This document shows, piece after piece, positions 10,273-64,000 of a stretch of DNA of 64,000 bases. Source of the stretch: Phyllobates terribilis (Eukaryota). Made by a program: the position numbers and the translations under genes. Below the pieces are notes generated by a model. The model searched no databases. It was not told where the DNA came from and worked only from the letters and a program-made list of their open reading frames with translations. Position 1 is the stretch's first letter. Every line of letters begins with the position of its first letter. The stretch is from the NCBI RefSeq assembly GCF_046119375.1, contig NW_027362765.1:61318001-61382000 (forward strand). The letters run 5' to 3'.

Positions 10273-10524
10273 AGGGGTATTCCCATCTCCAAGATCCTAT
10301 CCCAATATGTAGTAGGTGTAATAATAATAATATTAGCAAATACCTCCAATTAGAAATGTAGTATAGTATTTTTGAATCGCTATGTCTCTCTTTCCTCATG
10401 TGCAGGCATCGCAGGACCTTAGGTTTCCATGGTTACGTCCACTGATAAAGAGACAGTTAGTTAACTAGCTGCTAGTGGTCGTAACCGTGGATACCTAAGG
10501 TCCTGTATTGCCTGCACATGAGGT
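10273..10524. mobile_element. Truncated T2/Kolobok-type MITE inside the DIRS element
   Basis: TTAA followed by AGGGGTATTCCC; internal inverted repeat (GCAGGACCTTAGG...CCTAAGGTCCTG). Right end missing, joined directly to DIRS pol. Confidence 0.65.
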
Positions 10525-14546: not shown

Positions 14547-17500
14547 GTGAGAGATTCTGATGACGTCACATTACATCATTCTTATCTATGGGAATAACAG
14601 ATGGACAGAACTGGAGAGGTGAGGACTCTGGAAATGTCTGTAGTGAGATTTATTAATGTGTCTCTCCATAACCAGGATTACACAGTAGTGAAGAAGACCC
14701 CTAGTGAGCGCTGTCAGGACCCTGTGTCTGAGGGATGGGGAAGACCCCTGAGCCCAATCACGGAGCCTCCACCTCACCCCCTGATACATGAGGACATCAA
14801 TGACCAGAAGATCCTAGAACTCACCTACAAGATGATTGAGCTGCTGACTGGAGAGGTGACAGTGCTGGGAATGCTGGGACATTATATAGTAACGCTATGA
14901 AGGGATTGGGGTATGACGGTATCATTGTATGTGTCAGGTTGCTATAAGGTGTCAGGATGTCACCGTCTATTTCTCCATGGAGGAGTGGGAGTATTTAGAA
15001 GGACACAAAGATCTGTACAAGGACGTCATGATGGAGGTTCCCCAGCCCCTCACATCACCAGGTAATAGACAGGACTAAATACACACGGCCTATAATTATC
15101 TCTATGTAAAGAATGAATTCAGTCCCTGTATGTGTTTCCTCCAGTTCTATCCAGTAAGAGGACAACACCAGAGAGATGTCCCCGTCCTCTTCTTCCACAG
15201 GACTGTAAACAAGAAGATCCCGATGTTCTTCTGGATTATCAGGTAGATGGAGAGAAGGTGTCATGAGATCTCCCCTATGATGTGTAGAAGGCTGTGAAGG
15301 TCTTGTGTTCAGTCTTGTTTAGTGATGAGCGAGTCACAGCCATAGTCGCTATATCAGGGTCTGTCTGTATTGGATTAGATTGGGTCACTTCCCTCCTGAC
15401 GTCGCTCGCTGCTCTGTTACTGTACAGTCTCCATTATGGCCGTCGCATTCCTCACATGTATTAAATCTGTCAAACAGTCGCAAATCATGTTCACGGAGCA
15501 ACAAAAAACTTAAATCCCGAGCACGCTATAAATACTTGGTGCTCGGCCGAGTATACTCAGCGAAAGGGTTAACAAAACATACTCGCTCATCACTAGTCTT
15601 GTTTTATCTGTCAGTATTTTATACTGTATACTGAATGGCCAATTAATTACTGATAATGTTCTGATCATGGAAAAATGTGATGTGAACAATCATCATTTAG
15701 GTATCTGCAGCTGAATACATTGATGGTATTCATCTAATATATTAGATAAAATGCATTCATCGTTCCTAGGCACAGATGGGCTATAGCAGCAGACAACCAG
15801 TGTCATTGCTGTCCAAGGGAAAACAAAATATATAAAATTTCATTTGGCAAATGAGAGCAACAATTATATCACTGAGCAGTGGAAGAACCTTGGTTGGTGT
15901 TGTATCCTGATGATGGAAGGGTCAGAATTTGACACAATCAGCATGAATCCGTATAGCCTTCCTGTCAGATGCTAATCTTTCAGACTGGTGGTGATGGTGT
16001 AATGGTGCGGGGAATGTTTTCAGGGCTCTTCCTGTGTTTTTGGGTACCTGTGCATGGATGTTTGGACACTAGAGCTTACCTGAGCATTGTGACAGACCAA
16101 GGTCATCCCTTCATAGCTGCTCTTTACTGTTTGGTAGAAGGACAATGAGCCATGCCATAAGGGTTATGTAGTTATGGATTGATTCCAGTGTAAGGGTCAC
16201 AAGGTGTGTTATTATGATCCTAGACACCGGTGAAACAGTTTCCATGGTGTGCATGTTAACCCAGAAACCCCAGATATAACGCAGGGCTCGACAAACCCAG
16301 GCGCCTGGTCGCCAGTGGCGCCTAGAAAATGTTGCCTGGTGCTTGAGGAGTTGAGGAGTTGAGAAGAAAAAAAAATACTGTCAATCCAATCCCACCTCCT
16401 GCACGGAGTCATCCAATCGGAGGAAGCAGGGACAGTATCGCTCAGGCCGCCTTCTCCACTTTGCTCCGCCCCCCTTATGCTCCGGGACTGGACAGGGAGA
16501 GTTGGGTTACGGGGGAAGCAGGGCCGGCGTCAGCACCCGGCGTACCCGGGCAAGTGCCGGGGCCCTGGAAAATCAGAGGGGCCCAGCCGCCCACACACCC
16601 ACCCGCCCACTCACTGTCGGGGCCCCGCCCACTCACTGTCGGGGCCGGGCCCACACACCCACCCGCCCACTCACTGTCGGGGCCCTGGCCGCTTCCTCGG
16701 CACCTGTTCAGGAACGCAGGCGCTGCTTGATTGCCGGCACTTCCCCCAGACATGGCCGCGCGCTGTCCGGCTGTGTCTGCTAGTAATGACACGGCAGGGT
16801 CGACAGCACTGCACCTTTAATTGTGCTTGCGTGTCGCTCCTGCCGCGTCATTACTAGCAGACACAGCCGCACAGCGCGCGGCCATGTCTGGGGGAGTGCC
16901 GGCAATCAAACACCGTCGGAGCGGAGGTCCTGCACAGATGGGCGGGAGGGGCCCGGACCCGACCGCAAGTGGGCCCCTCTGATGTTCCAGGGCCATGAAG
17001 TCTGTGACACGCCGGGGGCCCTGCACTGCCCCATACCCGAGGAGCTGCTGGACAGGACACTGGACCGGGGACAGGTGAGTGAGGCTTCCCCAATCCCCAT
17101 ATTAAAAATATTAGTAATGGGTCTGTGTGAGTGCATGTATGTGAATGTCAGTGTATATGACTGTGTATATACAGTTATATGAAAAAGTTTGGGCACCCCT
17201 ATTAATCTTAAGCTTATTGTTTTATAAAAATTGGTGTTTTTGCAACAGCTATTTCAGTTTGATATATGTAATAACTGTTGGACACAGTAATGTTTCTGCC
17301 TTGAAATGAGGTTTATTGTACTAACAGAAAATGTGCAATCTGCATTCAAACAAAATTTGACAGGTGCATAAGTATGGGCACCTCACCAGAAAAGTGACAT
17401 TAATATTTAGTAGATCCTCCTTTTGCAAAAATAACAGCCTCTAGTCGCTTCCTGTAGCTTTTAATGAGTTCCTGGAACCTGGATGAAGGTATTTTTGACC

Positions 17501-20500
17501 ATTCCTCTTTACAAAACAATTCCAGTTCAGTTAAGTTTGATGGTCGCAGAGCATGGACAGCCCTCTTCAAATGATCCCACAGATGTTCAATGATATTCAG
17601 GTCTGGGGACTGGGATGGCCATTCCAGAACATTGTCATTGTTCCTCTGCATGAATGCCTGAGTAGATTTGGAGCGGTGTTTTGGATCATTGTCTTGCTGA
17701 AAGATCCATCCCCTGCGTAACTTCAACTTTATCACTGATTCTTGAACATTATTGTCAAGAATCTGCTGATACTGAGTGGAATCCATGCGTCCCTCAACTT
17801 TAACAAGATTCCCGGTGCCGGCATTGGCCACACAGCCCCAAAGCATGATGGAACCTCCACCAAATTTTACTGTGGGTAGCAAGTGTTTTTCTTGGAATGC
17901 TGTGTTTTTTTGCCGCCATGCATAACGCCTTTTTGTATGACCAAACAACTCAATCTTGGTTTCATCAGTCCACAGGACCTTCCTCCAAAAAGAAATTGGC
18001 TTCTCCAAATGTGCTTTTGCATACCTCAGCCGACTCTGTTTGTGGCGTGCTTGCAGAAACGGCTTCTTTCGCATCACTCTCCCATACAGCTTCTCCTTGT
18101 GCAAAGTGCGTTGTATAGTTGACCGATGCACAGTGACACCATCTGCAGCAAGTTGATGCTGCAGCTCTCTGGAGGTGGTCTGAGGATTGTCCTTGACTGA
18201 TCTCACCATTCTTCTTCTCTGCCTTTCTGATGTTTTTCTTGGCCTGCCACTTCTGGCCTTAACAAGAACTGTCCCTGTGTTCTTCCATTTCCTTACTATG
18301 TTCCTCACAGTGGAAACTGACAGATTAAATCACTGAGACAGCTTTTTGTATCCTTCCCCTGAACAACTATGTTGAATAATCTTTGTTTTCAGATCATTTG
18401 ACAGTTGTTTTGAGGAGCCCATGATGCCACTCTTCAGAGGAGATTCAAAGAGGAGAACAACTTGCAAGTGGCCACTTTAAGTAGCTTTTCTCATGATTGC
18501 ATACACCTGGCTATGAAGTTCAAAGCTCAATAAGGTTACAAAACAAAAAAAAAGTGCTTTATTAAGTCAGTAAAAAGTAGGTAGGAGTATTTAAAACAAG
18601 AAAATGATAAGGGTGCCCATACTTATGCACCTGTCAAATTTTGTTTGAATGCAGATTGCACATTTTCTGTTAGTACAATAAACCTCATTTCAAGGCAGAA
18701 ACATTACTCTGTCCAACAGTTATTACATATATCAAACTGAAATAGCTGTTGCAAAAACACCAATTTTTATAAAACATTAAGCTTAAGATTAATAGGGGTG
18801 CCCAAACTTTTTCATATAACTGTATATTTGTCTGTTTTATCTATGTGTATGTCTGTATGTGTACATATGTCTGCGTACCGTGTGTGCGCGCGCATATGTC
18901 TGCGTACCGTGTGTGCGCGCGCATATGTCTGCGTACCGTGTGTGCGCGCGCATATGTCTGTGTACCGTGTGTGCGCGCGCATATGTCTGCGTACCGTGTG
19001 TGCGCGCGCGCGCATGTCTGCGTACCGTGTGTGCGCGCGCATATGTCTGCGTACCGTGTGTGCGCACGCATATGTCTGCGTACCGTGTGTGTGTGTGTGC
19101 GCGCGCGCATGTCTGCGTACCGTGTGTGTGCGCGCGCATGTCTGCGTACCGTGTGTGCGTGTGCATATGTCTGCGTATGTGAAGGATGAGGGGGNNNNNN
19201 NNNNNNNNNNNNNNNNNNNNNNNNNNNNNNNNNNNNNNNNNNNNNNNNNNNNNNNNNNNNNNNNNNNNNNNNNNNNNNNNNNNNNNNNNNNNNNNNNNNN
19301 NNNNNNNNNNNNNNNNNNNNNNNNNNNNNNNNNNNNNNNNNNNNNNNNNNNNNNNNNNNNNNNNNNNNNNNNNNNNNNNNNNNNNNNNNNNNNNNNNNNN
19401 NNNNNNNNNNNNNNTGCATCATGAATCGTGTATGTGTTAAAAGGGCCCACTGAGACTCTTTCGCCCGGGGCCCAGAAAAACCTGGAGCCGGCCCTGGGGG
19501 GGAAGGATCGCTGTGGCCGGGGGCCCGTTCTCATCTCCCGCTACCTGTGTAAGTACATACAATGGCCGTGCTCCCCGGGGAGACTCCGTGTGTGAGGGGG
19601 TCTATATGTACAGTTTGTCAACAAAAAAAATTCTGGCTCCTAAATTTTTTGGCTGGCTCCTAGATTCTGAACAACTTTGTCGACCCCTGATATAACGTAT
19701 TAACAAGGAAGGATTTAGGCCACAATGTGAAAATGAACAGAATTTTACAGATTGATGTATCCTATATAGAGAATAGCAGATACACGATTTGTCAATCAAA
19801 TCATATGTTTCCAACAAAGGAAAATATTTAACAGTTTTGTACAGAGGCACATAACTTATACAGTAACCAGCATTTACATTTATTAGATTTCTGGAGCCCT
19901 TCATCTTTTCTGACTCCTTTTCCTTGCTGCCCATTTCCAGTGTACAATACGTGCCGTGGCTTGCCTATGTAGACTTTTTTTAAACTCTCAAGTCCGTGTT
20001 ACACGTAGCCTTTGTGATAGCCGTCTCAGGGTCCCCAAAAACTGACAGCTACCTTTCTGTATTTATGGCCCAGTACCACTAGAGTTCCTTTTCCTTCTCC
20101 CTTATCGAATTTCTGACATGGTCCCAAGTCTTACCAGATGTACACAAAAATGGTGCAGCCTTCAGTGCAAATTTGAAGCAAGCAGATGACAACGGGCCCC
20201 CCCTTCCTGCACAGGCCAGGTCGAGGTCTCACCCTCAGCATCTGCGATTGTTACGCCTCTGCCTATTGAATATCTTTGGGTAGAATTGGCTGTTCAATGC
20301 TTGTCATCACATGCAAGAAGCTATCATGTCCTCATGGGCCTATAATCCTGCATAATTATTTAATCACCTAGAATCTTTGACACAATAAATTGCTGAGGCC
20401 CTAGTGGGCAAACAATGTACTACATGACTAGATGGGTGTCTCTAATGTGTCCATTCAGTGTATGTTTTGTTTATGGTGGAGATGACAGGATAAAGCTGAT

Positions 20501-23500: not shown

Positions 23501-26500
23501 TGTAGACGGCTGCGCTGACTTTGGTGTTAATAAAACACTGGATCTACACCCGCAGATGACATGGCTCCCCAAACCATCACTGATTGTGGAACCTTCACAC
23601 TAGACCTGAAGCAGCTTGGATTGTGGCCTCTCCACTCTTCCTCCAGACTCTGGGATTTCCAAATGAAATGCAAAATTTACTTTGCATTTACTTAGTGTGT
23701 TTATGACTGCCTTCTGGACATCTGTCAAGCAGGGCTGTGGAGTCTGAGTCTGTATAAAATGGTCCGACTCCTAAAATATGTAATAAATTGGGTACAGTAG
23801 TTCAATGCAGTTTGTGGGGAATATTTTTTCATAAGAATTTGGGAAAGTTATAGTCTGGATCGGTGTCATGGAAATTGAGGAGTCAGAGGTTTGGCTTACA
23901 GACTCCACAGCCCTGCTGTCAAGTCAGCACTCTTTCCCATGATTGTGGAGCCTACTGAAACAGACTAAGCGACCTTTTTAAATGTGTAGCAAGCCTTTGC
24001 AGGTGGTTTTTGTTAATTATAATTTGCTGAGATAATGACTTTTGTGTTTTCATTGGCTGTAAGCCATAATCATCAACATTAACAGAAATAAACACTTGAA
24101 ATAGATCACTCTGTTTGTAATGACTCTATATAATATCAGTTTCACTTTTTGTATTGAAGAACTGAAATTAACTTTTTGATAATATTCTAACTTGGTGAGA
24201 TGTACCTGTAGCAGCCTTTTTGCAGATGCTGGCTTTCTTGTCATGTATTAACCAACCTAGTATGTCTTCATACATCCTTTTTGAGAAGGGGGGAATAACT
24301 GAGATTTGTAGGGTTGTAAAAATGTATGATAAAAGACATAGTGGCAATTTCAATCGGCAGGGTAGTATAAAAGGAAAAATAAATACCACGGCTAAGATTG
24401 AGGGGAGCTGCTGCAGCACCACTATCAATGGCATCAGCAGTCTGTTCAGTAGAGTTATGAAACAGTTCTCAATTGTCTACCTTTTTTATGGCACATCACT
24501 TGTCTCAGACTCTGTTTTTCAGCAATAACTGCACTGATATTGCTTGTAAAATTCAGAGTCACACCAGATACTGACAGTAAAGTTTCAGATACTTTGGAAA
24601 CTCAGTCAAGTGATATTGGATAATTTTCCTCATTTAAAAATAAAAGTCTAATATTTTTAATTAATTTATTTGATTTGGTTATTTTTATCAACTTTTAGTC
24701 TGAAAAATGTGATGTAGCTTTAGGTCAAATTTATTTTGTATTAAAGGGCAGTGTTTCTATTGGCTTGCATAACATATAAAAGAATATAGATGACTTGTTC
24801 TCATTTCTTGTGTCCACTGCTTAGTTTCATAAAAAATACAAAATCTTAAACTTTCTCCAAAGTAGTGGCTTATATGTACATGACCAATATGCTCCTTCTA
24901 TGTGCTTTGCTCCTACTAGAGTACTTGTACGTCTCAGAGGGTATGTAGTGAGCTGAAATCGCCAAATAAAACAAATTCCAATCCCCTTTCTGATTTTTTT
25001 CTGAACATGTAACTTGAAATGATTGGTGACGGGTACAGTGGAACATGAACCTATAGAGAAGGAGGTTACAATACAAAAGTAAAAAATTTTTAAGGGGCAT
25101 AATCTAGTGGCCTAACACGATAATCAGTCCCTCTTTTGTGGTCCACTGTCTTAGTCTGTTGATAATTGAATTGTATTACATTTGTATGTAAATTTTTAAA
25201 CTATATAATTATAAATATTTAAATATTTCCAATGCAGTGTTCTTGAAAAAATATTAAAATCGGTTTTATTCTTGGCAGATAACTGTACGAAGAGCTCAGA
25301 GAGAAATCTGATATTCTCTGATATTGCACCAGATACATGTGAAGAATATGTCATTATACCAGACACCCCTCATGCCAAGATCCTTTCTTCTGCTTCATCA
25401 GAGACAAATACAAAACAAAAAATACAAAAGAAAAACAAAAGTAACAGAAGGGCTGTTGAACATTCCATAGGGAAGAATCCATTTTTATGTTCAGAATGTG
25501 GGAAATATTACCCTACTAAATCAAGATTTATTATACATCAGAGAAGTCACACGGGGGAGAAGCCATTTTTATGTTCAGAATGCGGGAAATATTACACTAC
25601 TAAATCAAGACTTATTGCACATCAGATAAGTCACAGAGGGGAGAAGCCATTTTTATGTTCAGAATGCGGGAAATATTACACTACTAAATCAAGACTTATT
25701 GCACATCAGAGAAGTCACACAGGGGAGAAGCCATTTTTATGTTCAGAATGCGGGAAATGTTTTACAGAAAAATTATATCTTGCTCAACATCAGAGAGTTC
25801 ACACAGGGGAGAAGCCATATTCGTGTTCAGAATGTGGGAAATGTTTTACACAGAAAACACATCTTGTTACACATCAGAGAGTTCACACAGGGGAGAAGCC
25901 ATTTTCATGTTCAGAATGTGGGAAATGTTATAGTGAAAAATCCAAACTTGCTATACATCAGCGAATTCACACAGCGAAGAAACCATTTTCATGTCCAGAC
26001 TGTGGAAAACATTATATTGAGAAATCCATACTTGTTGAACATCAGAGGAGCCACGCAGTGGAGAAGCCATTTTCTTGTTCAGAATGTGGGAAACATTATT
26101 GTATGAAATCGAAACTTTTAAAACATCAGAGAATTCACACAGGAGAGAAGCCATTTTCATGTTTAGAATGTGGGAAATGTTTTAATCAGAAAGCAAAACT
26201 TGTTAGACATCAGAGAATTCACACAGGGGAGAGGCCATTTTCATGTTCTGAATGTGGGAAATGTTTTTCTACAAACTCTATTCTTGTTACACATCGGAGA
26301 ATTCACCCAGGTATGAAGCCATTTCCATGTTTAGAATGTGGGAAATGTTTTATAGACCTATCACATCTTGTTACACATCAGCTAGGTCACAAAGTGAACA
26401 AGGTGTTTTCATGCTCCGATTGTGGAAAATGTTTTAAACGGAAATCAGTTTTAATAGTGCATCAGAGAATTCACACAGGGCAGAAGCCTTATTCGTGTTC

Positions 26501-26768
26501 AGAATGTGATAAATGTTTTGCAGTGAAACACCATCTTGTTAAACATCAAATAACTCACACAGGGAAGAAGCCATTTTCATGTTCAGAATGTGGGAAATGT
26601 TTTACACAGAAACCAAATCTTGTTGCACATCAGAGAACTCACACAGGGGAGAAGCCATTTTTATGTTCAAATTGTGGGAAATGTTTTAATAGGAAAGCTA
26701 GTCTTGTCAAACATGAGCGAATTCACACAGGGAAGAGCCTAGACCTCAGTCCAAAGGCTTTCACCTAG
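14469..26768 (+). CDS. FAX/KRAB-like C2H2 zinc-finger protein (XlCOF/XlCGF-like), join(14469..14546,14676..14855,14938..15061,15145..15242,20672..20762,25279..26768), 686 aa, 15 fingers
   Basis: All introns GT-AG, exon phases join in frame (total 2061 nt). Starts [26 protein letters not shown]; KRAB-like [26 protein letters not shown]; 15 CxxC...HxxxH fingers with TGEKP-type linkers. Confidence 0.9.
14676..14855 (+). CDS. Zinc-finger gene coding exon 2
   Basis: CCAG|GATTAC...GGAGAG|GTGAC, 180 nt; DYTVVKKT...[15 protein letters not shown]. Confidence 0.88.
14938..15061 (+). CDS. Zinc-finger gene coding exon 3 (KRAB-A-like)
   Basis: TCAG|GTTGCT...CACCAG|GTAATA; [41 protein letters not shown]. 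Confidence 0.9.
15145..15242 (+). CDS. Zinc-finger gene coding exon 4
   Basis: CCAG|TTCTAT...TATCAG|GTAGAT; [32 protein letters not shown]. Confidence 0.85.
15320..15595. mobile_element. hAT MITE whose left arm is replaced by a copy of 13919..14033
   Basis: TIR TAGTGATGAGCGAGT / ACTCGCTCATCACTA; TSD GTCTTGTT at 15312..15319 and 15596..15603. 15332..15446 is identical to 13919..14033. Confidence 0.92.
17172..18822 (-). mobile_element. Full-length Tc1 (DD34E) element with long IR/DR-type TIRs
   Basis: TA|CAGTTATATGAAAAAGTTTGGGCACC...GGTGCCCAAACTTTTTCATATAACTG|TA; about 210-bp inverted repeats; 1651 bp. Confidence 0.95.
17400..18422 (-). pseudogene. Tc1 transposase, 340 codons, one premature TGA at codon 31
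   Basis: ATG at 18422 ([16 protein letters not shown]...), TGA at 18332..18330, then uninterrupted through [22 protein letters not shown] (D34E) to AKGGSTKY. Confidence 0.9.
18864..19178. repeat. About 29-bp CpG-rich minisatellite, about 11 copies
   Basis: Unit CATATGTCTGCGTACCGTGTGTGCGCGCG with variable (GT)n/(GC)n length. Confidence 0.93.
19195..19414. other. Assembly gap (220 N)
   Basis: Run of N characters. Confidence 1.
20672..20762 (+). CDS. Zinc-finger gene coding exon 5
   Basis: TTTCAG|AGTAAA...GCACAG|GTGAGT, 91 nt; [30 protein letters not shown]. Confidence 0.88.
22048..22311. mobile_element. T2/Kolobok-type MITE
   Basis: TTAA flanks (22044..22047, 22312..22315); TIR AGGGATTGTCCACTACTTTTACATTGATGC / GCATCAATGTAAAAGTAGTGGACAATTTCT. 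Confidence 0.85.
22742..22998. mobile_element. Solo terminal repeat of the DD38E Tc1 family seen at 1..1503
   Basis: TA|CAGTACAGACCAAAAGTTTGGACAC...; nearly identical to the reverse complement of 1247..1503. Confidence 0.9.
22999..24208 (-). mobile_element. Internally deleted Tc1 (DD34E) lacking the outer part of one TIR
   Basis: ORF remnant 23168..23572 (QQDLAPVH...SPDLNTIE...AKGAPTKY). End ...GAGATGTACCTG|TA at 24208; 23001..~23056 is inverted relative to ~24050..24103. Confidence 0.85.
23730..23915. mobile_element. hAT MITE (CAGGGCTGTGGA family), 186 bp
   Basis: TIR CAGGGCTGTGGAGTC / GACTCCACAGCCCTG; TSD CTGTCAAG at 23722..23729 and 23916..23923. Confidence 0.92.
25279..26768 (+). CDS. 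Zinc-finger gene terminal exon with 15 C2H2 fingers
   Basis: TTGGCAG|ATAAC acceptor in frame with ORF 25272..26768; 15 tandem fingers. Confidence 0.95.
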
Positions 26769-37800: not shown

Positions 37801-39304
37801 TTCCTTCTCTGTTAAGAATTGTCTCCTCACCCGGGACACCCCCACTTACCACACTTATAGGAATACACGTACCATTAATACCCAGCAGCTTGTGGACAAT
37901 CTCCACACATCTTTAGCCCCCATCTCCTCCTTCTCCTGTCCAGACTTAGCATTGTCACACTACAATAATACACTGAAGAGTGCCCTAGGTGAAGCAGTTC
38001 CTCCTACTCGCATAAAGATCCGACACAGACAACGGCAGCCCTGGCACACGATGCAAACATGTTTTCTTCAACGTTGCTCAACGTGTGCTTAGCGTCAGTG
38101 GAGAAAATCTCTTTTAGCAGAGGACTTCATCCACTATAAATTCATGCTCAAAACCTATAACTCTGCCCTTCATCTGGCGAAACAATCCTACTTCACCACC
38201 CTCATCACTTCAATGTCCAACAATCCAAAACGACTTTTCGAAACCTTAAACTCCCTCCTGAAAACTAAAGCACAGGCCCCCACCACCAACCTCAGCGGGG
38301 AGGATCTGGCCACTTATTTCTTTGAAAAAATCAACCACATCCATCAGGACATCTCAGCCCAATCTCCTCAGTGCCTGGATCCCCTTCCCTGCCGCACTTC
38401 AAGCTCACTTGCCATCTTTGAGCCTGTCACAGAAGAAGAAGTTACTTCTTCTCAGCCTACAACCTGCAACAGTGACCCATTTCCTTCACATCTCCTGCAG
38501 TCCCTCTCACCGGTGGTCACCACTCACCTAACTAAAATATTTAACCTCTCTCTTTTTTCAGGTATCTTTCCCTCCTCATTTAAACATGCCATCATAACCC
38601 CTTTACTTAAAAAGCCATCCCTGGACCAGAACTGTGCTGCTAACTACAGACCTGTCTCTAATCTTCCTTTCATCTCTAAACTCCTGGAACGCTTGGTCCA
38701 CTCCCGTCTAATCCGCTATCTCTCAGATAACTCTCCCCTCGACCCTCTACAATCTGGTTTCCGCTCCTTACACTCCACTGAAACTGCCCTCACTAAAGTC
38801 TCTAATGATCTACTAACAGCCAAATCCAAAGGTCACTGCTCCCTGCTGATTCTCCTGGATTTCTCTGCAGCATTTGACACTGTGGATCACCAGCTCCTCC
38901 TCACTATGCTCTGCTCTATAGGCCTCAAGGAAACCGTTCTCTCCTGGTTCTCCTCCTACCTCTCTAACCGCTCCTTCACTGTATCTTTTGCCGGCTCCTC
39001 TTCCCCTCCTCATCCCCTTACTATTGGGGTTCCACAGGGCTCAGTCCTAGACACCCTCCTCTTCTCTCTATACACTGCCCCTATTGGACAAACAATCAGC
39101 AGATTTGGGTTCCAGTATCATCTCTATGCTGACGACACCCAATTATACACTTCTTCCCCTGACATCACCCCTACCCTAATACAAAATACCAAGGATTGTT
39201 TGTCTGCTGTGTCTAGCATCATGTCCTCCCTCTATCTTAAACTGAATCTCTCCAAAACTGAACTTCTTGTGTTTCCCCACCTCTACTAACCTAACTCTAC
39301 CTAA

Positions 39305-40718
39305 GGCTATGTGCCCACGATGCAGAAATGCTCAGGATTTTTTCCTGAGTGTTTCTGCATCTCCCTGGCAGAAAAAAACGCATGCGGATTGTACATGCGT
39401 TTTCCTGCCAGGGACATGCGGAAATGGAGCGTTATTCACTGACATTTCCGCATGTGGATTGACAAGCGCTTTCCAAGCGATTAGCATCACTTGGAAAGTG
39501 CTTGTGACAACTAGGTCACACTATATAAATCCATGCAAACAGCATGGATTTATATAGTGTGAACCGAGAGAGTGGTAAAAATAAAAAAATAAATATATAC
39601 TTACCCTCCGATGACCCGCGCTGGCTTGTTTCGCTCCGTCCCGGCTGTCGGCAACAATGAATTGAAAGACCTGCCGACGTCAGCGTCGCGTGACCCGTCA
39701 CATGACTCTGACGTCAGCGCAGGTCCTTCAATTCACTGCAAAGTGTCGGGAAGCAAGTAGGAGCGCAGCGCGGGCCGACAGAAGGTAAGTATACATTTAT
39801 TTTTTATTTTATTCTTTTTTTACAGATTTTTTAATGGTACCTGGGTGTGGATGAAACTCTCCTCTCATCTACACCCGGGTACCATCCGCACATTAGAACG
39901 CTTGGATTATGCATCTACATATACAGTGATGCGTAATCCATGCGGTCTAATGCAAGTCAATGGCAGCGAAGACGCAGCACTTCCGCAAAATAATTGGTAG
40001 TACTGCGTTTTTTTCCGCAATGATAATCCGCAGGTTCTTCTAAGGAGACCTCCAGATACACAGTGCTATCAATAATCCCTTTGTAAGTATAATGGCCGGC
40101 TCAATTTAGATACTACTATAGGCATCTAATACTTGGGTCCCAATTACACTATATTTACTTGAACTACTTTGGCACTTTATAATATGAATATATTCTCTAA
40201 TTATTTTGGTACTTGATATTTATCTATGATACTTGGCTTTGTATTCTATATACTGTGCATAATATTAATTAAGAGCATTTTTTGTGGGAATAGTGCAATT
40301 TTTTCTGATGTCCTAGTTTATATGGGCCTGGAGTCACATCAAAATTCTTATTAATTAGGGATAACACTATATGTGACTGAATTGATTTGGATAGGTCTCC
40401 TTTAATGTTTTTAGGTTTCTGCTTTTACTTATCTTTTATTGTATGTTCATGAATTATATTCTTAAATTGGCGAAATAAAAGAATGATTTTATTAGATTTT
40501 GTTGTATATCTTCCTTAAACCAGGTTTATAACTGTGGTTTGTGTGTGTAATGATAATCCGCAGCGGAAATTTCCGCAGCATGTGCACAGCACGTGCGGAT
40601 TATCATTGGGGAACATTGCTGCCCTTCTACCATGCGTTTTTAATGCGTTTTTAATGCGTTTCCGCAGCTGCAAAATCGCTGCGGAAACGCATTAAAAACG
40701 CATCGTGGGCACACAGCC
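39305..40718. mobile_element. Non-autonomous PIF/Harbinger element, 1414 bp
   Basis: TAA|GGCTATGTGCCCACGATG...CATCGTGGGCACACAGCC|TAA; removing it restores the L2 coding sequence. Confidence 0.9.
40034..40548. mobile_element. 515-bp AT-rich insertion with 15-bp TSD (retroposition-type, family unknown)
   Basis: AATGATAATCCGCAG at 40019..40033 and 40549..40563; AATAAA near the right end and a (GT)n-like tail. Confidence 0.7.
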
Positions 40719-41789
40719 TAACATCGAAATTACCTTGGAGGGTTCAACCATAACTCCCAAGCAGCACGCCCGCTGCCTTGGGGTCATATTTGACACTAAC
40801 CTTTCCTTTACTCCCTATATCCGATCACTCACTCGCTCTTGTCAACTGCATCTTAAAAACATCTCCAGAATCCGATCTTTTCTCACTTTTGAAACTGCTA
40901 AAACTCTTACTGTCGCTCTTATTCACTCTCGTCTGGACTACTGCAACTCTCTTCTGATCGGTCTCCCTCTTACCAAAATTTCCCCTCTCCAATCTGTCCT
41001 GAATGCGGCAGCCAGGGTCGTATTTCTGTCCATCCGCTTCACCGATGCCTCCACCTTGTGCCAGTCATTACACTGGTTACCCATTCGCTACAGGGTCCAA
41101 TATAAACTCATTGCTCTCACCCACAAAGCTCTCCACAGTTCTGCACCACCTTATATCTCCTCTCTCATCTCAGTCTATCATCCTACACGTGCCCTTCATT
41201 CCACAAATGACCTAAGACTAACATCCCCCATAATCCGAACCTCGCACCTCCGTCTCCAAGACTTCTCTCGTGCTGCACCAGTTCTCTGGAATGCTCTACC
41301 CCAGACGATCCGATTGATGCCTAGCCCCGATGTCTTCAAGCGCGCTTTAAAAACCCATCTCTTTAAACAAGCCTACCATCTCAAATACCCAGTAAACTAA
41401 CTTTCCCCTGTTCCCTCCTAAATACTACACAGAATCTGCCCCCTACTGTTCATCTGTCTCTACACCCTCCATGCACACGATAACTGCACTCGGTAATTGA
41501 GTATTGCACTTGAACATACAGGCTGATGACCGGATCATACAGCTTTATATGATAATCCCGACTTATTATAATTGCCTGACCTGAAATAACTAGCACTTTC
41601 CACCTATAGTGTCCCCCCATTTCCGTGTAGAATGTAAGCTTGCGAGCAGGGACCTCACTCCTGATGTAACTGTTAAACTGTCTCACCTTGTATTGAATTT
41701 ATTGTCTGTACATGTCCCCGCTTAATTGTAAAGTGCTGCGGAAAATGTTGGCGCTATATAAATAAAAATTATTATTATTATATTAATCT

Positions 41790-53685: not shown

Positions 53686-54864
53686 AAGTTGACGCGCCCC
53701 CTGGGCCGTGGGGTACCCGGAGCCGGGCCGATAGAAGCTGGGGGTTGTAGTCACTGTGGCGGTGACCCGGTCCGTGACCCAGGGCGGTCAATCCAAGGGT
53801 AATTTGTATATATGGGTTTTATAATGTCCGACTAAACCACCTGTGGAGTGCGGCCAAAGGGGCCGCCGCTGCGGAACAGTCCTCTGAAGCTGGTGGTTTT
53901 GCAGCAATGGTATTATTACTCCCCACAGGACGAGTGTAGCTTCAGGGCAGTGTGGGTGGATGATGGTGGTTGTAGTGCAGGGAGTCAGTAATGAACACAG
54001 AGTCCGTGTGATGCAGTCCCAAGATCTTTACTCACAGTTGTTGCAGTCCAGATTACAGGTACCAGAGCAATCTCTCCCGTCGTGCTGTGCGTACTCAGTG
54101 AGGGGCTCAGTCCACCCCCAGATAGCTCCGGAGTACTTAGCAGGACCCCCTTCTGTGTGTCCTTTCTCTGGCCTTCTCCCTGCACCTCACACCCAGTGAC
54201 ACTTCTATCCGGTATCCTGGGGCCTTGGCGGGCGACGTGTGTTCCGTCCCCTGGGTCCTATGTGGCTACCTTCTTAGTGAGACTGGTGTGGACTTTGGCC
54301 TGTAGTACATGAAATGCTGCAGCCTCCGGTTTCTAGTTGAGCCTTGCAGTTTCTCCGCTAGTTGAGTGACCGGTTCCCCTTATCTCTACCTCCTGGTAGC
54401 AGCGGGCGTACGGGTGGCCTTCTGCACGGCCCGTACCCCTAGGGTCCCTTCGGTTCCGGGAGCCTTCCTGCTCCCACTCATCTCTTCTCTCCTTCAGTCC
54501 TGGGCCTCCCAGGCTAGGCCCACCTCCGGGGCAGAGCTCATGCAGAGCCTCTGCTCCTGTCACTTCTCCTCCTCTGACTGGCTTGCTCTTTCTAAGATGG
54601 CTTCCTATTTATACTCTCCCTGTCATGTGCTCCTCTAAGCTGCTTTCTCCACCCACACCCACTACATAGGACCCTCCCGCCAGCTAGGGACCTGGGACTG
54701 GGCTCTCCCTTAGGAGCAATCTCGCCCTACCCCCACTGCTGGTATGTGTTGGATGCAGGTGTTAGGGTCCCAAGCCATACTCCTTCCTTACCTGAGGGTG
54801 AGATACCACACCTCTGGGTGAGATGCAGTACCTCTGTGGCGACTGAACCCTCAGGGGCGCCACA
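53686..54864 (-). mobile_element. LTR (53690..54864) plus 4 extra nt, no TSD; related to the LTRs at 58436 and 62283
   Basis: Minus-strand start TGTGGCGCCCCTGAGG and end GCGCGTCA resemble TGTAGCACCCCGAGG...GCGAGTCA. It interrupts IRDL|TLQHSFE of the hAT ORF. Confidence 0.85.
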
Positions 54865-57540: not shown

Positions 57541-57887
57541 CGCTCTGATTAATGGCATCAACTATTCGCCACTAGATCCCATAGGGAGGGTGGGCAACTG
57601 TTGCCCGATGGGTGGGCGTTGGGGAGGAGCTCTGTGAAAATCTGCCAATTGAATTGTGATAAAGCGTTAGCAGCAGCTTTAGACCCCTCAGCATCGTGGC
57701 TAGCGCGGACCCATACATTGTGTTTTAGGCACAGGAATGCTAGCCGGCGTAGTAGGCCTAGCACTGGGAGAGACGATGATGCCATCTTATTAATGCAGTG
57801 CGCTAGGCTGGTGTTTTTTGTTATGAAGCGTATATTTTTGTTAGCCAGGCGCGCCCCATATTTCTATTGCTACCACTATTGGGAAGA

Positions 57888-58435
57888 AAAATTATTTTCC
57901 GGGCTAGATGCAGCTAAAAATTATTATTAATTTCAAAGCTGGTGGAGCTTGGTATAGATGGCCTAATACAATGAATACCACACACTGCTACTATGCCCAA
58001 AATTATTTTCCAGGCAAGATGCAGCTACAAATTATTATTAATTTGAAAGCTGGTGGAGCTTAGTATAGATGGCCTAATAGAATGAGTACCACACACTGCT
58101 ACTATGCCCAAAATTATTTTCCAGACAAGATGCAGCTAAAAATTATTATTAATTTCAAAGCTGGTGGAGCTTGGTATAGATGGCCTAATACAATGAGTAC
58201 CACACACTATTACTATGCCCAAAATTATTTTCCAGGCAAGATGCAGCTAAAAATTATTATTAATTTCAAAGCTGGTGGAGCTTGGTATAGATGGCCTAAT
58301 ACAATGAGTACCACACACTACTACTATGCCCAAAATTATTTTCCAGGCAAGATGCAGCTAAAAATTATTAGTAATTTCAAAGCTGGTGGAGCTTAGTATA
58401 GATGGCCTAATAGAATGAGTACCACACACTGCTAA
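57888..58435. repeat. 111-bp tandem array, part left of the LTR element (about 5 units)
   Basis: CTATGCCCAAAATTATTTTCC recurs at 57991, 58102, 58213 and 58324. Confidence 0.95.
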
Positions 58436-59699
58436 TGACTCGCCCCCTGGGCCATGTTGCAGTGCGGCGCACGTGTGCGCGGGGGAATACCCGGAGCCGG
58501 ATCCGATGGGGGTTGTAGTCTCCGAGTGGCGGGGACCCGGTCCATGCCCAGGGTGGTCAAACCAAGTGGCGGTTATTGCTATGATGGTATTAGTGTCCGA
58601 CTACGCCACCCGTTGAATGCGGTTATGAAACCGCCGCTGCAGGGCAGACCGCTGAGGCCGGTGGTATGGTTGTGCAGCGTGGATGGTATAACCCCCAACG
58701 GGAGGGGTATAGCCTCAGGGCAGCTGGTGAAGCAGGAAATGATGATAGTGGTAGTGGTGGTGTGACAAGGAATCGCAGAGACTTGTAGTGCAGGTTTAAA
58801 GCTTTACTCACAGTTGGTGTTCAGATCACTTCGGCCAAGAGTGACCACCCGAGCCGTGCTGCGTCCACCAGGTGCGGGACTCGGCCAACTCCCAGGCAGT
58901 TCCAGAGCGTGGTCCTGAGCTCCCCTCTCCTGCTTCCTACTGGCCGTCCCCACCAGGGATCCACCTTTGTCCGGCTCCCTCGGGCGTTCTGGTGGTGAAA
59001 CCTTTCCCGGCTTCCCTGACCCTATACGTGGTTTGCCTTCCTGGTGGATGTGGCGAGGGGTCGCGCCAAAACTTGACCACGACCTCCGGTTCCTGGCTGA
59101 GGATAATTGGCCTCCACCAGTTTGGGATCCGGTACCCTGTTCTGCCAACCCTTCACCCGTTAACTCGTGGGATCTCAGGGTTCCCTCTCTTCTTGCGTCT
59201 CTGGGCCTTTCCTGGTGTTTCTGTTCCTCCTTCTTCTTCTTTCTCTCTCTCTCTGCCTCAGGCCTCCTCTCCAGGCCTGGCTCTGGAGCTGGGCCCAGAC
59301 TGAGCCACAGCTCCCTGTCAGCCCTCTCTGGCTGAGCTCCTCTCTGAACTGACCGTTGATCCAAGATGGTGCCCACCTTTTATACTCCCTCTGACACCCG
59401 AGCCCAGGTGACCAGCACCCAATGGGCTCCTACCTATGCCCAGAGTCCCTCCCCTCTCTGCTCCTACACCACTGGGATGTTCCTCCCCCCTCCCCACTCC
59501 AGCCAGGGACAGAAGCTGTCGTACCTGCACATCTATCTGGTGGGAGTACCGTTGGTCTATCCCCCGGAAATGGGGTGAGTGTAGTGCATGCAGCTAACTG
59601 AGCTCAGTTCCACGCCCCATCCTTACCCGGGAGTGGAATACCACACCTCTGGTTCGAGGTGCAATACCCCTGTAGCAGCCGAGTCCTCGGGGTGCTACA
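58436..59699 (-). repeat. 3' LTR
   Basis: Direct repeat of 62283..63546, preceded on the minus strand by the PPT. Confidence 0.95.
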
Positions 59700-59711
59700 T
59701 TCCCCCCTGGT
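59700..59711 (-). other. Polypurine tract
   Basis: ACCAGGGGGGAA immediately before TGTAGCACCCC on the minus strand. Confidence 0.85.
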
Positions 59712-60322
59712 AAATCACAGCACGTCCTCGGGCTGGAATAGAATAAAACAATATAAAACATACAAATTTTGAAAGTGCACTCATATATAAAACATTAACT
59801 GAAAACTCATCCCTTTATGGGAGGTACTTTTCTCTTTTAACGTTACGGGTATAAAACATTTTTCTAAGACATTCTATTAATGCCACCGGAACTCTTTTGC
59901 AAAACACTATATACAACTTTTTGGCATTATTATTTTAGCAGCATATTTAGCTTTCCATTATAAGACATTCTTAAATAAAACATTTTCAAACATATTCTTG
60001 ATCTCCGGCCGCTGTGCAACTTGCGACCAGGTAAAGCGCAACAGTCACTAATTCCACGATAGAAAAACAGTTTCTTATAAAACCAGTAGGGGGCACTTTA
60101 AGAAGCGCAACTATTTACAGGGTGACCGCTCTCAGTCCTCGGCCAGTGGGGATAAGGGAGTGGCTGCTCACAGTCCTCAGCCTGATTAGGGAATAGGGCA
60201 CACAGGTAACAGTCCCTTTAATAACTCGACTCTAGTCCCAACGGGGACCACACTCCAATTAGCAGCAATCCTTGTACCCCGACGGGTAACTATATACAGT
60301 TCTTTGTTCATGCTACTTCCCT

Positions 60323-62302
60323 TCAGTAGCTATGTCCTCTCCGTGCTCTCTCCTGAGGGTAGTCTTCAGACCCGTCCGGGTCCTCTTGGTCTTCCTCATA
60401 CTGCAACTCCTCCTCAGTCAGCCGGTGTACGTGAAGGGCGTACGGTCCTTTAGCACACTGATGCCGGGTGAAGGCGACCACATCACCCGGGTAGAGGTCA
60501 CGTCCGCAGTGTCCCTCCGGCAGGTGGCTCTCGACATCCCTGCGGGTGACAAAGACGTCGCCGGGGGTTCGGTGATCCCGGATAAAGCCCCAGCCGTTCT
60601 CCAGTTGAAACTTTATTACGGTCCCGGTGGTGCGGGGGCCGTGGGCCGTACGGGGGTTTCGTCGGGCCCGGCGTTTCTGCTCCGCGCTTTGGGCCTGCAG
60701 CTGTTCCTCGCGGATTCGCCTCTCTCGCCGTTCTCTCCCAAAGACCTCCAGCTGTTGACGGCAGCACTCCTCACGCCGGGCTGCGGCCGCCCGGGTCTCC
60801 TTGGTGAACCCCATGAGGTCCTCACCGGTCGGATCCCATGCGAATTGGGCGTCTTCCAACGGGAGCGGGACAATTTTGGGGGGTGCCGGTGCCGGGATCA
60901 GAGGCTCACACAGGGGCCGTTCCCTCCGGAGTCGGGGGTTGATGTACTCCGGTGGCCACACGAAGGGCAGCCCGTCCGGGCTAGTATGCTGCGCGAAGAG
61001 ATCTTCGCCCAGGGGCAGCACTGTGGAGGTCGAGGGCGCTGTGGGGGCAGCGGTGCCCGGAGGTACCCAGCCTTGCGACCAGGCCGGCGGCACAGTGGAG
61101 GTAGAGGGCGCTGTGGAGACCGCGGCGCCCGGGGGTACTCGGCCCTGCGACCAGGCCGGGGGAATCCTATTTGGGTCAAAGGACGGCACCCTTGAGGAAG
61201 AGGGCGCTGGAGGGGCATCAGCGCCCGGGTTCACCAGGCCCTGCGACCAGGCCGGTGGCACTTCCTGTTTTACCGCGCTCAGGGTCAAGGGGCGTGGCGC
61301 GGAAGAGGGTGTGACCGCGGCTCCTGCCGCTTGAGGCCTAGTTGGGAGTAGTGGCGGTGCGGCAACGGGCGTGGTGAGTAGGACTTCGGGCTCTGCGACG
61401 GGGAGCTGGGGCAGGCTTGCGGCTACTGGGCTCGGGGTAGTGACGTCCCCATTACCTGCTTCCATCCTTGCAGCTCCCTCCGCGGCGTCGTCTCCGGCCT
61501 TCGTCCCTCCTGCACCATCCTCAGGGGCAGACATGCCCCACGTTGCGGGTGGCGTCCTCTGCTGGCGGGTTCCAGCCTGCTGGGCCATCTCCCTTCTCCA
61601 TTCGGCCAGTGCTTCTTGCTGTACTCGGGCCATCTTCCAGGCCAAGGCCTCCAGCGCAGCCTGTGCACGCTCCGGATCTCTGGGGAGCTGTGCCAGGATC
61701 TCCACTAGGCTGTCTGGCGTTGCGGCCTGCAGCAGGCCCCGGCCCGAGGTGCTGGCATTGCTGGGCGCTTCCTCCATTCCCGGGTGCAAACCATCCAGAC
61801 TCCTCCAGGCTGCACCCATCTTCTCCGTTTTGTTCTCTATCCGCCCCCCTTGGGAGTGGTCCCGGGGCAACTTAGTGACAGTCAGTTTCAGGGGCAGACC
61901 CCCCACTTTGATGGACATTTCCATGGTGGTAGTCTCAGCTGGTGGGGGCGGTCTCCGCTTTTGGCGCCCTTCTGGGACCGCGCCCACGATGGGAGGTGGT
62001 CTCTTGCCACCCTCTGGCACGCCCATAATGGCGTCCGCTCTGCCAGGGCGGGAAATCGTCTCAGATCGCGGGAATCGTCTCCCGATGGCGGGAAACTTCG
62101 CAGATGGCGGGCAAAGACTGCAGATGGCGGGCAAACGGCGGGAAACGACCCCAGATGGCGTCCGATGGCGGGAACCCTCTGGAATTGGCGGGAGACTCCT
62201 TTTTGCGGTAAATGTGAACTTTTCTTCAGGCACGCAGTACCCGGTGGTTGCGGGCACGTAATCCTGCCGACTACGCCAAAGTTGACTCGCCCCCTGGGCC
62301 AT
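60323..62302 (-). CDS. LTR-element protein with C-terminal cold-shock domain; 659 aa from ATG 62302 (alternative ATG 62026)
   Basis: Uninterrupted ORF (track gives 60323..62407 from a TTG). CSD at about 60419..60632: GTVIKFQLENGWGFI (RNP1-like), DVFVT (RNP2-like), PGDVVAF...KGPYALHV. Preceded by a Pro/Ala-rich linker and a charged coiled-coil-like stretch. Confidence 0.85.
   Translation of the reverse strand: MAQGASQLWRSRQDYVPATTGYCVPEEKFTFTAKRSLPPIPEGSRHRTPSGVVSRRLPAICSLCPPSAKFPAIGRRFPRSETISRPGRADAIMGVPEGGKRPPPIVGAVPEGRQKRRPPPPAETTTMEMSIKVGGLPLKLTVTKLPRDHSQGGRIENKTEKMGAAWRSLDGLHPGMEEAPSNASTSGRGLLQAATPDSLVEILAQLPRDPERAQAALEALAWKMARVQQEALAEWRREMAQQAGTRQQRTPPATWGMSAPEDGAGGTKAGDDAAEGAARMEAGNGDVTTPSPVAASLPQLPVAEPEVLLTTPVAAPPLLPTRPQAAGAAVTPSSAPRPLTLSAVKQEVPPAWSQGLVNPGADAPPAPSSSRVPSFDPNRIPPAWSQGRVPPGAAVSTAPSTSTVPPAWSQGWVPPGTAAPTAPSTSTVLPLGEDLFAQHTSPDGLPFVWPPEYINPRLRRERPLCEPLIPAPAPPKIVPLPLEDAQFAWDPTGEDLMGFTKETRAAAARREECCRQQLEVFGRERRERRIREEQLQAQSAEQKRRARRNPRTAHGPRTTGTVIKFQLENGWGFIRDHRTPGDVFVTRRDVESHLPEGHCGRDLYPGDVVAFTRHQCAKGPYALHVHRLTEEELQYEEDQEDPDGSEDYPQERARRGHSY
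62260..62278 (-). other. Primer binding site complementary to tRNA-Ser
   Basis: + strand AATCCTGCCGACTACGCCA equals the 3' end of vertebrate tRNA-Ser(AGA/TGA) including CCA; 4 nt from the 5' LTR. Confidence 0.9.
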
Positions 62303-63546
62303 GTTGCAGTGCGGTGCACGTGTGCGCGGGGGAATACCCGGAGCCGGATCCGATGGGGGTTGTAGTCTCCGAGTGGCGGGGACCCGGTCCGTGCCCAGGG
62401 TGGTCAAACCAAGTGGCGGTTATTGCTATGATGGTATTAGTGTCCGACTACGCCACCCGTTGAATGCGGTTATGAAACCGCCGCTGCAGGGCAGACCGCT
62501 GAGGCCGGTGGTATGGTTGTGCAGCGTGGATGGTATAACCCCCAACGGGAGGGGTATAGCCTCAGGGCAGCTGGTGAAGCAGGAAATGATGATAGTGGTA
62601 GTGGTGGTGTGACAAGGAATCGCAGAGACTTGTAGTGCAGGTTTAAAGCTTTACTCACAGTTGGTGTTCAGATCACTTCGGCCAAGAGTGACCACCCGAG
62701 CCGTGCTGCGTCCACCAGGTGCGGGACTCGGCCAACTCCCAGGCAGTTCCAGAGCGTGGTCCTGAGCTCCCCTCTCCTCCTTCCTACTGGCCGTCCCCAC
62801 CAGGGATCCACCTTTGTCCGGCTCCCTCGGGCCTTCTGGTGGTGAAACCTTTCCCGGCTTCCCTGACCCTATACGTGGTTTGCCTTCCTGGTGGATGTGG
62901 CGAGGGGTCGCGCCAAAACTTGACCATGACCTCCGGTTCCTGGCTGAGGATAATTGGCCTCCACCAGTTTGGGATCCGGTACCCTGTTCTGCCAACCCTT
63001 CACCCGTTAACTCGTGGGATCTCAGGGTTCCCTCTCTTCTTGCGTCTCTGGGCCTTTCCTGGTGTTTCTGTTCCTCCTTCTTCTTCTTTCTCTCTCTCTC
63101 TGCCTCAGGCCTCCTCTCCAGGCCTGGCTCTGGAGCTGGGCCCAGACTGAGCCACAGCTCCCTGTCAGCCCTCTCTGGCTGAGCTCCTCTCTGAATTGAC
63201 CGTTGATCCAAGATGGTGCCCACCTTTTATACTCCCTCTGACACCCGAGCCCAGGTGACCAGCACCCAATGGGCTCCTACCTATGCCCAGAGTCCCTCCC
63301 CTGTCTGCTCCTACACCACTGGGATGTTCCTCCCCCCTCCCCACTCCAGCCAGGGACAGAAGCTGTCGTACCTGCACATCTATCTGGTGGGAGTACCGTT
63401 GGTCTGTCCCTCGGAAATGGGGTGAGTGTAGTGCATGCAGCTAACTGAGCTCAGTTCCACGCCCCATCCTTACCCGGGAGTGGAATACCACACCTCTGGT
63501 TCGAGGTGCAATACCCCTGTAGCAGCCGAGTCCTCGGGGTGCTACA
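62283..63546 (-). repeat. 5' LTR
   Basis: Direct repeat of 58436..59699; TATAAAA on the minus strand at 63231..63225 and AGTAAA variant polyA signal near 62655..62650. Confidence 0.95.
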
Positions 63547-64000
63547 CTAATATGCCCAAAATTATTTTACAGGCAAGATGCAGCTAAAAATTATTAGTAA
63601 TTTGAAAGCTGGTGGAGCTTAGTATAGATGGCCTAATAGAATGAGTACCACACACTGCTAATATGCCCAAAATTATTTTACAGGCAAGATGCAGCTAAAA
63701 ATTATTAGTAATTTGAAAGCTAGTGGAGCTTAGTATAGATGGACTAAGAATAAGTCCCACACACTGCTACAAGCCCAAAATTATTTTCCGAGCTAGATGT
63801 AGATAAAAATTATTTGTAATTTGCAAGCTGGAGGAGCTTAGTATAGATGGACTAAGAATAAGTCCCACACACAGCTACAAGCCCAAAATTATTTTCCGAG
63901 CTAGATGCAGATAAAAATTATTTGTAATTTGCAAGCTGGTGGAGCTTAGTATAGATGGACTAAGAATAAGTCCCACACACTGCTACAAGCCCAAAATTAT
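63547..64000. repeat. 108-111-bp tandem array, continuation right of the LTR element
   Basis: Units start at 63547, 63658, 63767 and 63875; later units form a diverged subtype (CTACAAGCCC, GGACTAAGAATAAGTCC). Confidence 0.95.

Follow-up and report, generated by a model that had tools for sequence, protein, structure and literature searches.

Non-autonomous long terminal repeat (LTR) retrotransposons have so far been known as non-coding or Gag-only elements. Among the closest described systems, Bik-1 and Bik-2 (BHIKHARI) of zebrafish and 1a11 and xretpos of Xenopus are pol-less LTR families with a single open reading frame (ORF), and embryonic expression is reported for them in the portions of PMC12067270 and PMC4585706 consulted. 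Within LTR elements of another kind, the PF00313 cold-shock domain (CSD) was captured in 46 bird endogenous retroviruses (ERVs), in several captures (PMC12287698, consulted in part). Here we analyse an LTR retroelement (58436..63546, minus strand) in a 64,000-nucleotide stretch of the Phyllobates terribilis genome (assembly GCF_046119375.1, contig NW_027362765.1, positions 61,318,001 to 61,382,000), hereafter the window, whose only gene ends in a CSD. The element is one copy of a large, young, enzyme-less family with thousands of copies, and its status as a selected protein-coding LTR satellite with a non-Gag ORF is well supported. Our fuller proposal, for which our confidence is evenly balanced, is that this high-copy satellite shares its ends with a Ty3/Gypsy helper and would encode, in the position of gag, a selected adaptor protein that favours its own RNA.

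The 5′ LTR (62283..63546) and 3′ LTR (58436..59699) of the window element are each 1264 nt long with TG...CA ends, and differ by nine substitutions and no indels. Behind the 5′ LTR and a 4-nt spacer lies a primer-binding site (62260..62278) that matches 19 nt of the 3′ end of tRNA-Ser(AGA) from the same genome (3 of 3 genes compared), while a polypurine tract occupies 59700..59710. The flanks carry a 4-bp target-site duplication (TSD), CTAA, at 58432..58435 and 63547..63550, the left copy lying inside a 111-bp satellite array. An earlier note, made from the letters of this DNA, had described a complete cis architecture of two 1264-bp LTRs with about nine differences, a tRNA-Ser primer site, a polypurine tract and a 4-bp TSD, and we located all of these parts as it described them. 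A Pfam scan of the window ORF detected no Gag, protease, reverse transcriptase (RT), RNase H, integrase or zinc knuckle, in agreement with the note, which saw no protease, RT, RNase H, integrase or CCHC knuckle in the interior. The LTRs with TG...CA ends, primer site, polypurine tract and TSD, together with the lack of RT, RNase H and integrase and the presence of many dispersed copies, identify a non-autonomous LTR retrotransposon.

Searching the 10.6-Gb genome with the C-terminal 125 residues of the ORF returned 150 scored matches, all 150 at 92% identity or more, and each of 20 relatives that we fetched had two LTRs flanking a 1.7-2.7-kb interior of the same kind. The exact junction of LTR end and primer site occurs 31,079 times in the genome and its reversed control 0 times. 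The first 60 junctions on contig C1 comprised 31 of the satellite ORF type, 23 with gag and pol, one with gag only, one with pol only and four unresolved, which scales up to some 16,000 junctions of the satellite type, a rough estimate drawn from the first 16 Mb of one chromosome. A 4-bp duplication was present in 33 of the 39 satellite copies with both LTRs measurable and in 9 of 10 helper copies. The median LTR divergence of 39 satellite copies was 0.34%, and in a positional sample the LTR pairs were younger in the satellite than in the helper (25 versus 10 copies, p = 4e-5; helper median 0.96%), with identical pairs in 6 of the 25 satellite copies. Among named proteins, the nearest matches are gene models of Phyllobates, Ranitomeya and Anomaloglossus; our protein searches found single-CSD relatives only among gene models of these three, none of them with RT or integrase. 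Repeats are usually masked before gene calling, so the absence of CSD relatives from other animals is weak evidence. Some satellites form tandem LTR-interior-LTR-interior-LTR arrays, as at locus L031 and, with a spacing of ~3.8 kb, on contigs C1, C256 and C518.

The same junction pattern led to an autonomous partner with the same LTR ends and primer site, which the earlier note had recommended looking for. This helper is a gag-pol type element of ~8 kb with 1.0-kb LTRs. The one copy scanned for domains encodes a PNMA-type Gag, and its Pol contains RT, RNase H and integrase together with a weak protease match; the full pattern of a CCHC knuckle is present in Gag, scoring under the Pfam cut-off, and the best solved relative is Ty3. 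No CSD was present in any of the 13 helper copies that we read across 10 kb. Satellite and helper have in common the last ~290 nt of the LTR (the unique 5′ region, U5, which forms the terminus of the window 5′ LTR), the tRNA-Ser primer site with its 4-nt spacer, the leader to about the start of helper gag (61778..62259 in the window copy, where it is in frame with the ORF), a polypurine tract and a 4-bp duplication. In contrast, the unique 3′ region (U3), the ORF and the 3′ untranslated region of the satellite have no extended similarity to the helper, the last of these (59711..60322) resembling it only beside the polypurine tract. The satellite is therefore not a plain deletion derivative of the helper, and with its U3, ORF and 3′ untranslated region unrelated to those of the helper we rejected simple deletion as its origin. 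Two other routes to a partner were also discarded: 0 of 30 loci of SCAN-Gag (Gmr1-like) Gypsy elements had the satellite junction of LTR end and primer site, and a search by integrase zinc-finger families returned other Gypsy lineages.

A tree of U5 sequences from 12 satellite and 13 helper elements (24 chosen from the 60 junctions, plus the window copy) interleaved the two labels, forcing at least four label changes, and a single satellite clade was rejected (p-AU 0.0002). In a tree of the leader, satellite and helper were separate, save for one chimera. U5 has thus been exchanged repeatedly between satellite and helper. Such exchange is what template switching between RNAs packaged together should leave behind, as is established for LTR elements, and the interleaving of U5 set against the separation of the leader leads us to infer template switching in shared particles. 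It is highly probable that helper Gag and Pol mobilise the satellite, and the 5′ leader is likely the packaging region of satellite RNA.

The longest open frame of the window element, 659 codons beginning at an ATG in the LTR end (60323..62302 in the ORF listing), is what the earlier note took as the protein. We aligned 52 ORFs, each selected because its frame ran open for 430 codons or more, and divided 39 of these into three subfamily groups for comparison, computing the ratio of nonsynonymous to synonymous substitution rates (dN/dS) pairwise with codon bootstraps in six subfamily comparisons under two transition weightings. Over residues 1-150 dN/dS was 0.50-1.16, with 1 inside every interval, and this part of the frame aligns to the untranslated leader of the helper; because of both, the 659-codon length is likely too long. 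Among candidate starts, Met176 is present in 50 of the 52 ORFs, Met162 in 37 and Met1 in 28. The lack of constraint upstream and the conservation of Met176 argue that translation probably begins at Met176, near the position of the helper gag start, giving a predicted protein of 484 aa (60323..61777) in place of the 659 aa of the note; a start at Met1 was rejected on its presence in 28 of 52 ORFs, the unconstrained codons 1-150 and their homology to the helper leader. At the LTR-end codon itself (62300-62302), where most helpers have ACG or CAG, an ATG or CTG stands in frame in several satellite subfamilies. Among 56 copies whose primer site was located, 32 have a frame open from this codon to the CSD, through codons that lack protein-level selection, and selection against upstream stops could possibly underlie the open leader frame.

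Purifying selection acts on three regions of the satellite protein. The first is an N-terminal helical module (residues 176-245, 61568..61777), where dN/dS over residues 195-250 was 0.21-0.66 and selection is seen whether the CSD is present or absent. The second (residues 431-556, dN/dS 0.09-0.42 with two values saturated) joins a conserved motif region matching no known family (residues 431-500, 60803..61012, dN/dS 0.14-0.36) to a long charged helix and basic stretch with 17 Arg/Lys (residues 501-556, 60635..60802). The third is the CSD (residues 559-626, 60425..60628), with dN/dS of 0.08-0.28. Between the first two lies a Pro/Ala-rich linker, holding three copies of a 72-nt repeat (61014..61253), with dN/dS of 0.51-0.82. 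The selected blocks are ~55-70 residues each. A model of the whole protein made without an alignment was of low confidence (mean predicted local distance difference test, pLDDT, 45.7) and showed only a helical hairpin and one long helix. Among 31 satellite copies sampled by position, and not picked for an open frame, the frame was open from the leader through the stop behind the CSD in 23.

The CSD (PF00313) is the sole Pfam family in the 659-codon ORF, scoring 30.6 bits against a cut-off of 27. Predicted with a 15-sequence alignment, it forms a five-stranded barrel (mean pLDDT 77), and the top Foldseek matches to this model are Csp and YBX1/2 domains at a root-mean-square deviation of ~2 Å, a bacterial Csp ranking first. 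The claim of the earlier note that the ORF ends in a clear CSD thus agrees with both the Pfam score and the predicted fold. We considered the YBX1 nucleic-acid contacts W65, Y72, F74, D83, F85, H87 and K118 (PMC7498358, consulted in part). Positions equivalent to F74 and D83 are unchanged in 52 of 52 ORFs, F85 is kept in 50 and is Tyr in two, K118 is Lys or Arg in all 52, and Y72 is Trp in all 52; of the RNP1 and RNP2 aromatic residues, some are retained and others changed. The domain resembles those of YBX1 and YBX2 in its CSD fold, in its RNP1 and RNP2 phenylalanines and in a long loop between strands 3 and 4 that aligns almost without gaps; it differs in its ~32% identity, the replacement of W65 and H87, the absence of the Y-box C-terminal tail and the different N-terminal parts. 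As judged from the alignment, its nucleic-acid surface is under selection but altered relative to YBX1, and the basic helix and CSD together quite probably bind single-stranded RNA.

Ranked by a family profile of the CSD, the eight best of 36 solved sequences were Y-box proteins, leading CspA by 3 bits. The earlier note had also called the protein Lin28-like, a label that drew no backing from a set in which none of the 36 is named Lin28. In a 40-row CSD tree, 18 element-type CSDs fell on one side of a long branch (100/100) and joined Y-box-like rows weakly (66/89), the rows including no Lin28, no named YBX and no frog YBX, the last because a search of this genome for the host YBX gave just one decayed copy. 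The element-type clade takes in a second LTR family, older relics and gene models from other poison frogs, and a single old capture of the CSD from a Y-box gene appears likely. The note's broader suggestion, that a diverged CSD is maintained in a mobile non-autonomous family, was borne out, the copies being dispersed and young and the CSD under purifying selection. The outcomes that it had listed against itself did not occur: the CSD matched in profile and fold, 23 of 31 frames were open, and the ORF had no similarity to the gag or pol of the partner.

We propose that helper Gag would package satellite RNA, likely transcribed from the LTR promoter, by way of the shared leader, that tRNA-Ser would prime its copying by helper RT, and that integration would make the 4-bp duplication. 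The satellite protein would act as an adaptor of two selected modules connected by a flexible linker. Its N-terminal helical module may self-associate or dock on the particle of the helper, while RNA may be held by the basic helix and CSD, with a preference for the transcript being translated, so that satellite RNA would be stabilised and would enter particles better than helper RNA. The CSD would then be a quantitative booster rather than an absolute need. We give slightly less than even credence to this division of labour, in which docking or self-association by the helical module and retention of its own RNA by the CSD would improve packaging over that of helper RNA. The adaptor model would explain the selection seen in the satellite, the young copies and why a CSD-less branch persists, though in fewer copies. 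Helper Gag and the N-terminal 85 residues of the protein, modelled together as a complex without alignments, scored 0.02, which speaks neither for nor against docking.

Several observations weigh against this proposal. Two base contacts of YBX1 are altered throughout, W65 being Lys or Arg in 52 of 52 ORFs and H87 being Thr, Asn or Asp, and RNA binding may therefore be weaker or different. The contrast in age between satellite and helper relies on just 10 helper copies from a single chromosome tip. For the second CSD family we found no helper, 0 of its 30 sampled junctions being followed by the gag or pol of the first helper. Finally, the CSD was lost by different deletions in 4 of the 31 sampled satellite copies, and one of the four deletion junctions has 92 exact dispersed matches; the 18 copies of this derivative that we fetched all lacked the CSD, and 7 of the 8 that could be measured had their own 4-bp duplication. 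Since CSD-less copies spread, the element can do without the CSD in cis, at any rate in a branch of ~100 copies, and we rejected a strict cis requirement. Within this derivative, 12 of 15 copies with a located start have a frame open to the deletion junction, and in these 12 the first 70 codons had a dN/dS of 0.21 (0.12-0.36) and the remainder 0.79 (0.60-1.07). The N-terminal helical module thus remains under selection without the CSD.

The spread of CSD-less copies also fits the main rival to the adaptor, in which the protein counters silencing, aids export or protects RNA, working off the particle and largely in trans and shielding the RNA of the family, and perhaps that of the helper, from PIWI-interacting RNAs (piRNAs), decay or translational masking. 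Y-box proteins are known to mask and stabilise mRNA, and the 17 Arg/Lys in the 56 residues before the CSD presumably bear some likeness to nuclear or RNA-export motifs. A good shared in trans should decay in the satellite, yet 23 of 31 frames are open and dN/dS is low in every subfamily comparison, and the N-terminal module is still selected in the CSD-less branch. Together these indicate a cis benefit, and we consider the trans explanation unlikely, if the strongest of the rivals.

Less probable again is that satellite and helper form a two-part, mutually useful element, with the CSD protein serving the helper as an accessory factor, much as an accessory gene on a separate genome would. Their similar numbers at the sampled junctions (31 versus 25 of 60) and the repeated exchange of U5 would suit such a partnership, as would the CSD families being one old clade in the genome. 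None of 13 helper copies has acquired the CSD, however, and the satellites look younger than the helpers, as for a parasite outrunning its host.

We rate marginally lower, as improbable, the reading of the ORF as a Gag of extreme divergence, able to form particles by itself and having a CSD where a zinc-knuckle nucleocapsid would be. The ORF does start at the helper gag position and follows the order of helical domain, linker and basic RNA-binding end, and the known pol-less fish and frog families encode Gag. But a Gag or capsid family was matched in 0 of 20 members, a profile comparison with helper Gag gave a probability of 0.1%, the low-confidence model shows just the hairpin and long helix, and selected blocks of ~55-70 residues are short for a capsid. 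The suggestion of the earlier note that the CSD substitutes for a nucleocapsid fares poorly on the same evidence, as the ORF lacks a capsid match, helper Gag retains a CCHC knuckle and the CSD-less derivative occupies 92 sites.

A last reading, that the CSD came along neutrally with a captured host mRNA or that a few loci retain it because it benefits the frog, finds precedent in the many CSD captures of bird ERVs (PMC12287698, consulted in part) and in three LTR-less CSD relics in tandem on contig C4, but is very improbable and already largely refuted by a dN/dS far under 1 between replicating subfamilies, a long shared branch apart from all host CSDs and thousands of dispersed young copies.

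The second LTR family has unrelated LTRs of ~1030 nt, the same tRNA-Ser primer site and a 2.6-kb interior with a related CSD in mid-ORF (loci L288-L303, L305-L319 and L325-L354). Its exact junction occurs 466 times, and 28 of 30 sampled junctions match its ORF. Contig C4 (791483613-791520259, loci L285-L287) carries a tandem set of three CSD ORFs in partial decay, around which no LTRs could be recognised and whose DNA identity to one another is 78-91%. The RNP2 histidine is retained in two of the three, and these two branch deepest within the element-type CSD clade; the group may be an old relic or a domesticated copy. Older relatives (L090, L103 and L105; L279 and L280) have a different Ser-type primer site and a short remaining CSD frame, and one of their junctions has 14 exact copies. 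Intronless tandem copies of a CSD protein at C1:734437889-734449260 (L081-L086) we take to be CSDE1-like and likely processed pseudogenes. We tentatively suggest that poison frogs carry an old, undescribed class in which several LTR families exchanged gag-pol for an RNA-binding protein of two modules, derived from a captured Y-box domain, and would hijack Ty3/Gypsy particles, outrun their helpers and add tens of megabases to a giant genome.

Other features of the window element and its surroundings are as follows. A TATA-like box in U3 (63227..63231, minus strand) is a candidate promoter by its motif, and an AGTAAA poly(A)-like signal lies in the 3′ LTR at 58803-58808. A second primer-site-like sequence of 12 nt lies within U5 (62444..62455, and 58597-58608 in the other LTR), ~170 nt before the LTR end; it is seen in helper and satellite LTRs, and in the older relative L090 it matches the other primer type. 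The element is inserted in a 108-111-bp satellite array (57777-58435 and 63547-64000). Elsewhere in the window, a lone diverged LTR of the same superfamily (53690-54864), ~70-77% identical to its relatives and with flanks lacking a duplication, stands between two long frames that we take to resemble halves of a hAT transposase. Tandem C2H2 zinc fingers make up a 517-codon frame at 25215-26768, and further frames are presumably Tc1 transposase-like (43-1107 and 17400-18329), DIRS-like (10499-12385) and LINE RT-like (38093-41400).

The satellite has a non-Gag protein under purifying selection, and it must therefore gain something from that protein. A host RNA-binding fold has here probably been turned into a selfish gene, and how a parasite RNA beats helper RNA to packaging becomes testable through natural comparisons within one genome, among the helper, the satellite, the CSD-less derivative and the second family. 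The family also accounts for 'CSD domain-containing' and chimeric gene models in poison-frog annotations. We found no such family described in the full-text literature searched; Repbase and Dfam lay outside that search, so a library entry may exist. The term 'cold shock' had 0 occurrences in two papers on frog transposons (PMC11152451 and PMC12822217).

Set beside known systems, the satellite resembles the plant TR-GAG, LARD and TRIM elements in being LTR-bounded and without RT or integrase, but TR-GAG is defined by a Gag domain and LARD and TRIM by having no domain (PMC6022998, consulted in part), whereas the satellite has a long non-Gag ORF, ending in a CSD, under purifying selection. With Bik-1, Bik-2, 1a11 and xretpos it shares two LTRs, one ORF, no pol and reliance on a partner. 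As far as the consulted portions of the sources go, Bik ORFs encode Gag and that of 1a11 is Gag-like, whereas the CSD-ended satellite ORF has no Gag match, although its fold outside the CSD is of low confidence and a very remote link to a capsid is possible; in the satellite, moreover, the partner is identified in the same genome. Like the bird CSD ERVs, it bears a PF00313 domain within an LTR retroelement. Those ERVs are classed by RT and have the CSD at varying places, and the bird set may hold pol-less cases (PMC12287698, consulted in part). The satellite differs from them in that its highly diverged and selected CSD ends the sole gene of a high-copy, enzyme-less Ty3/Gypsy satellite.

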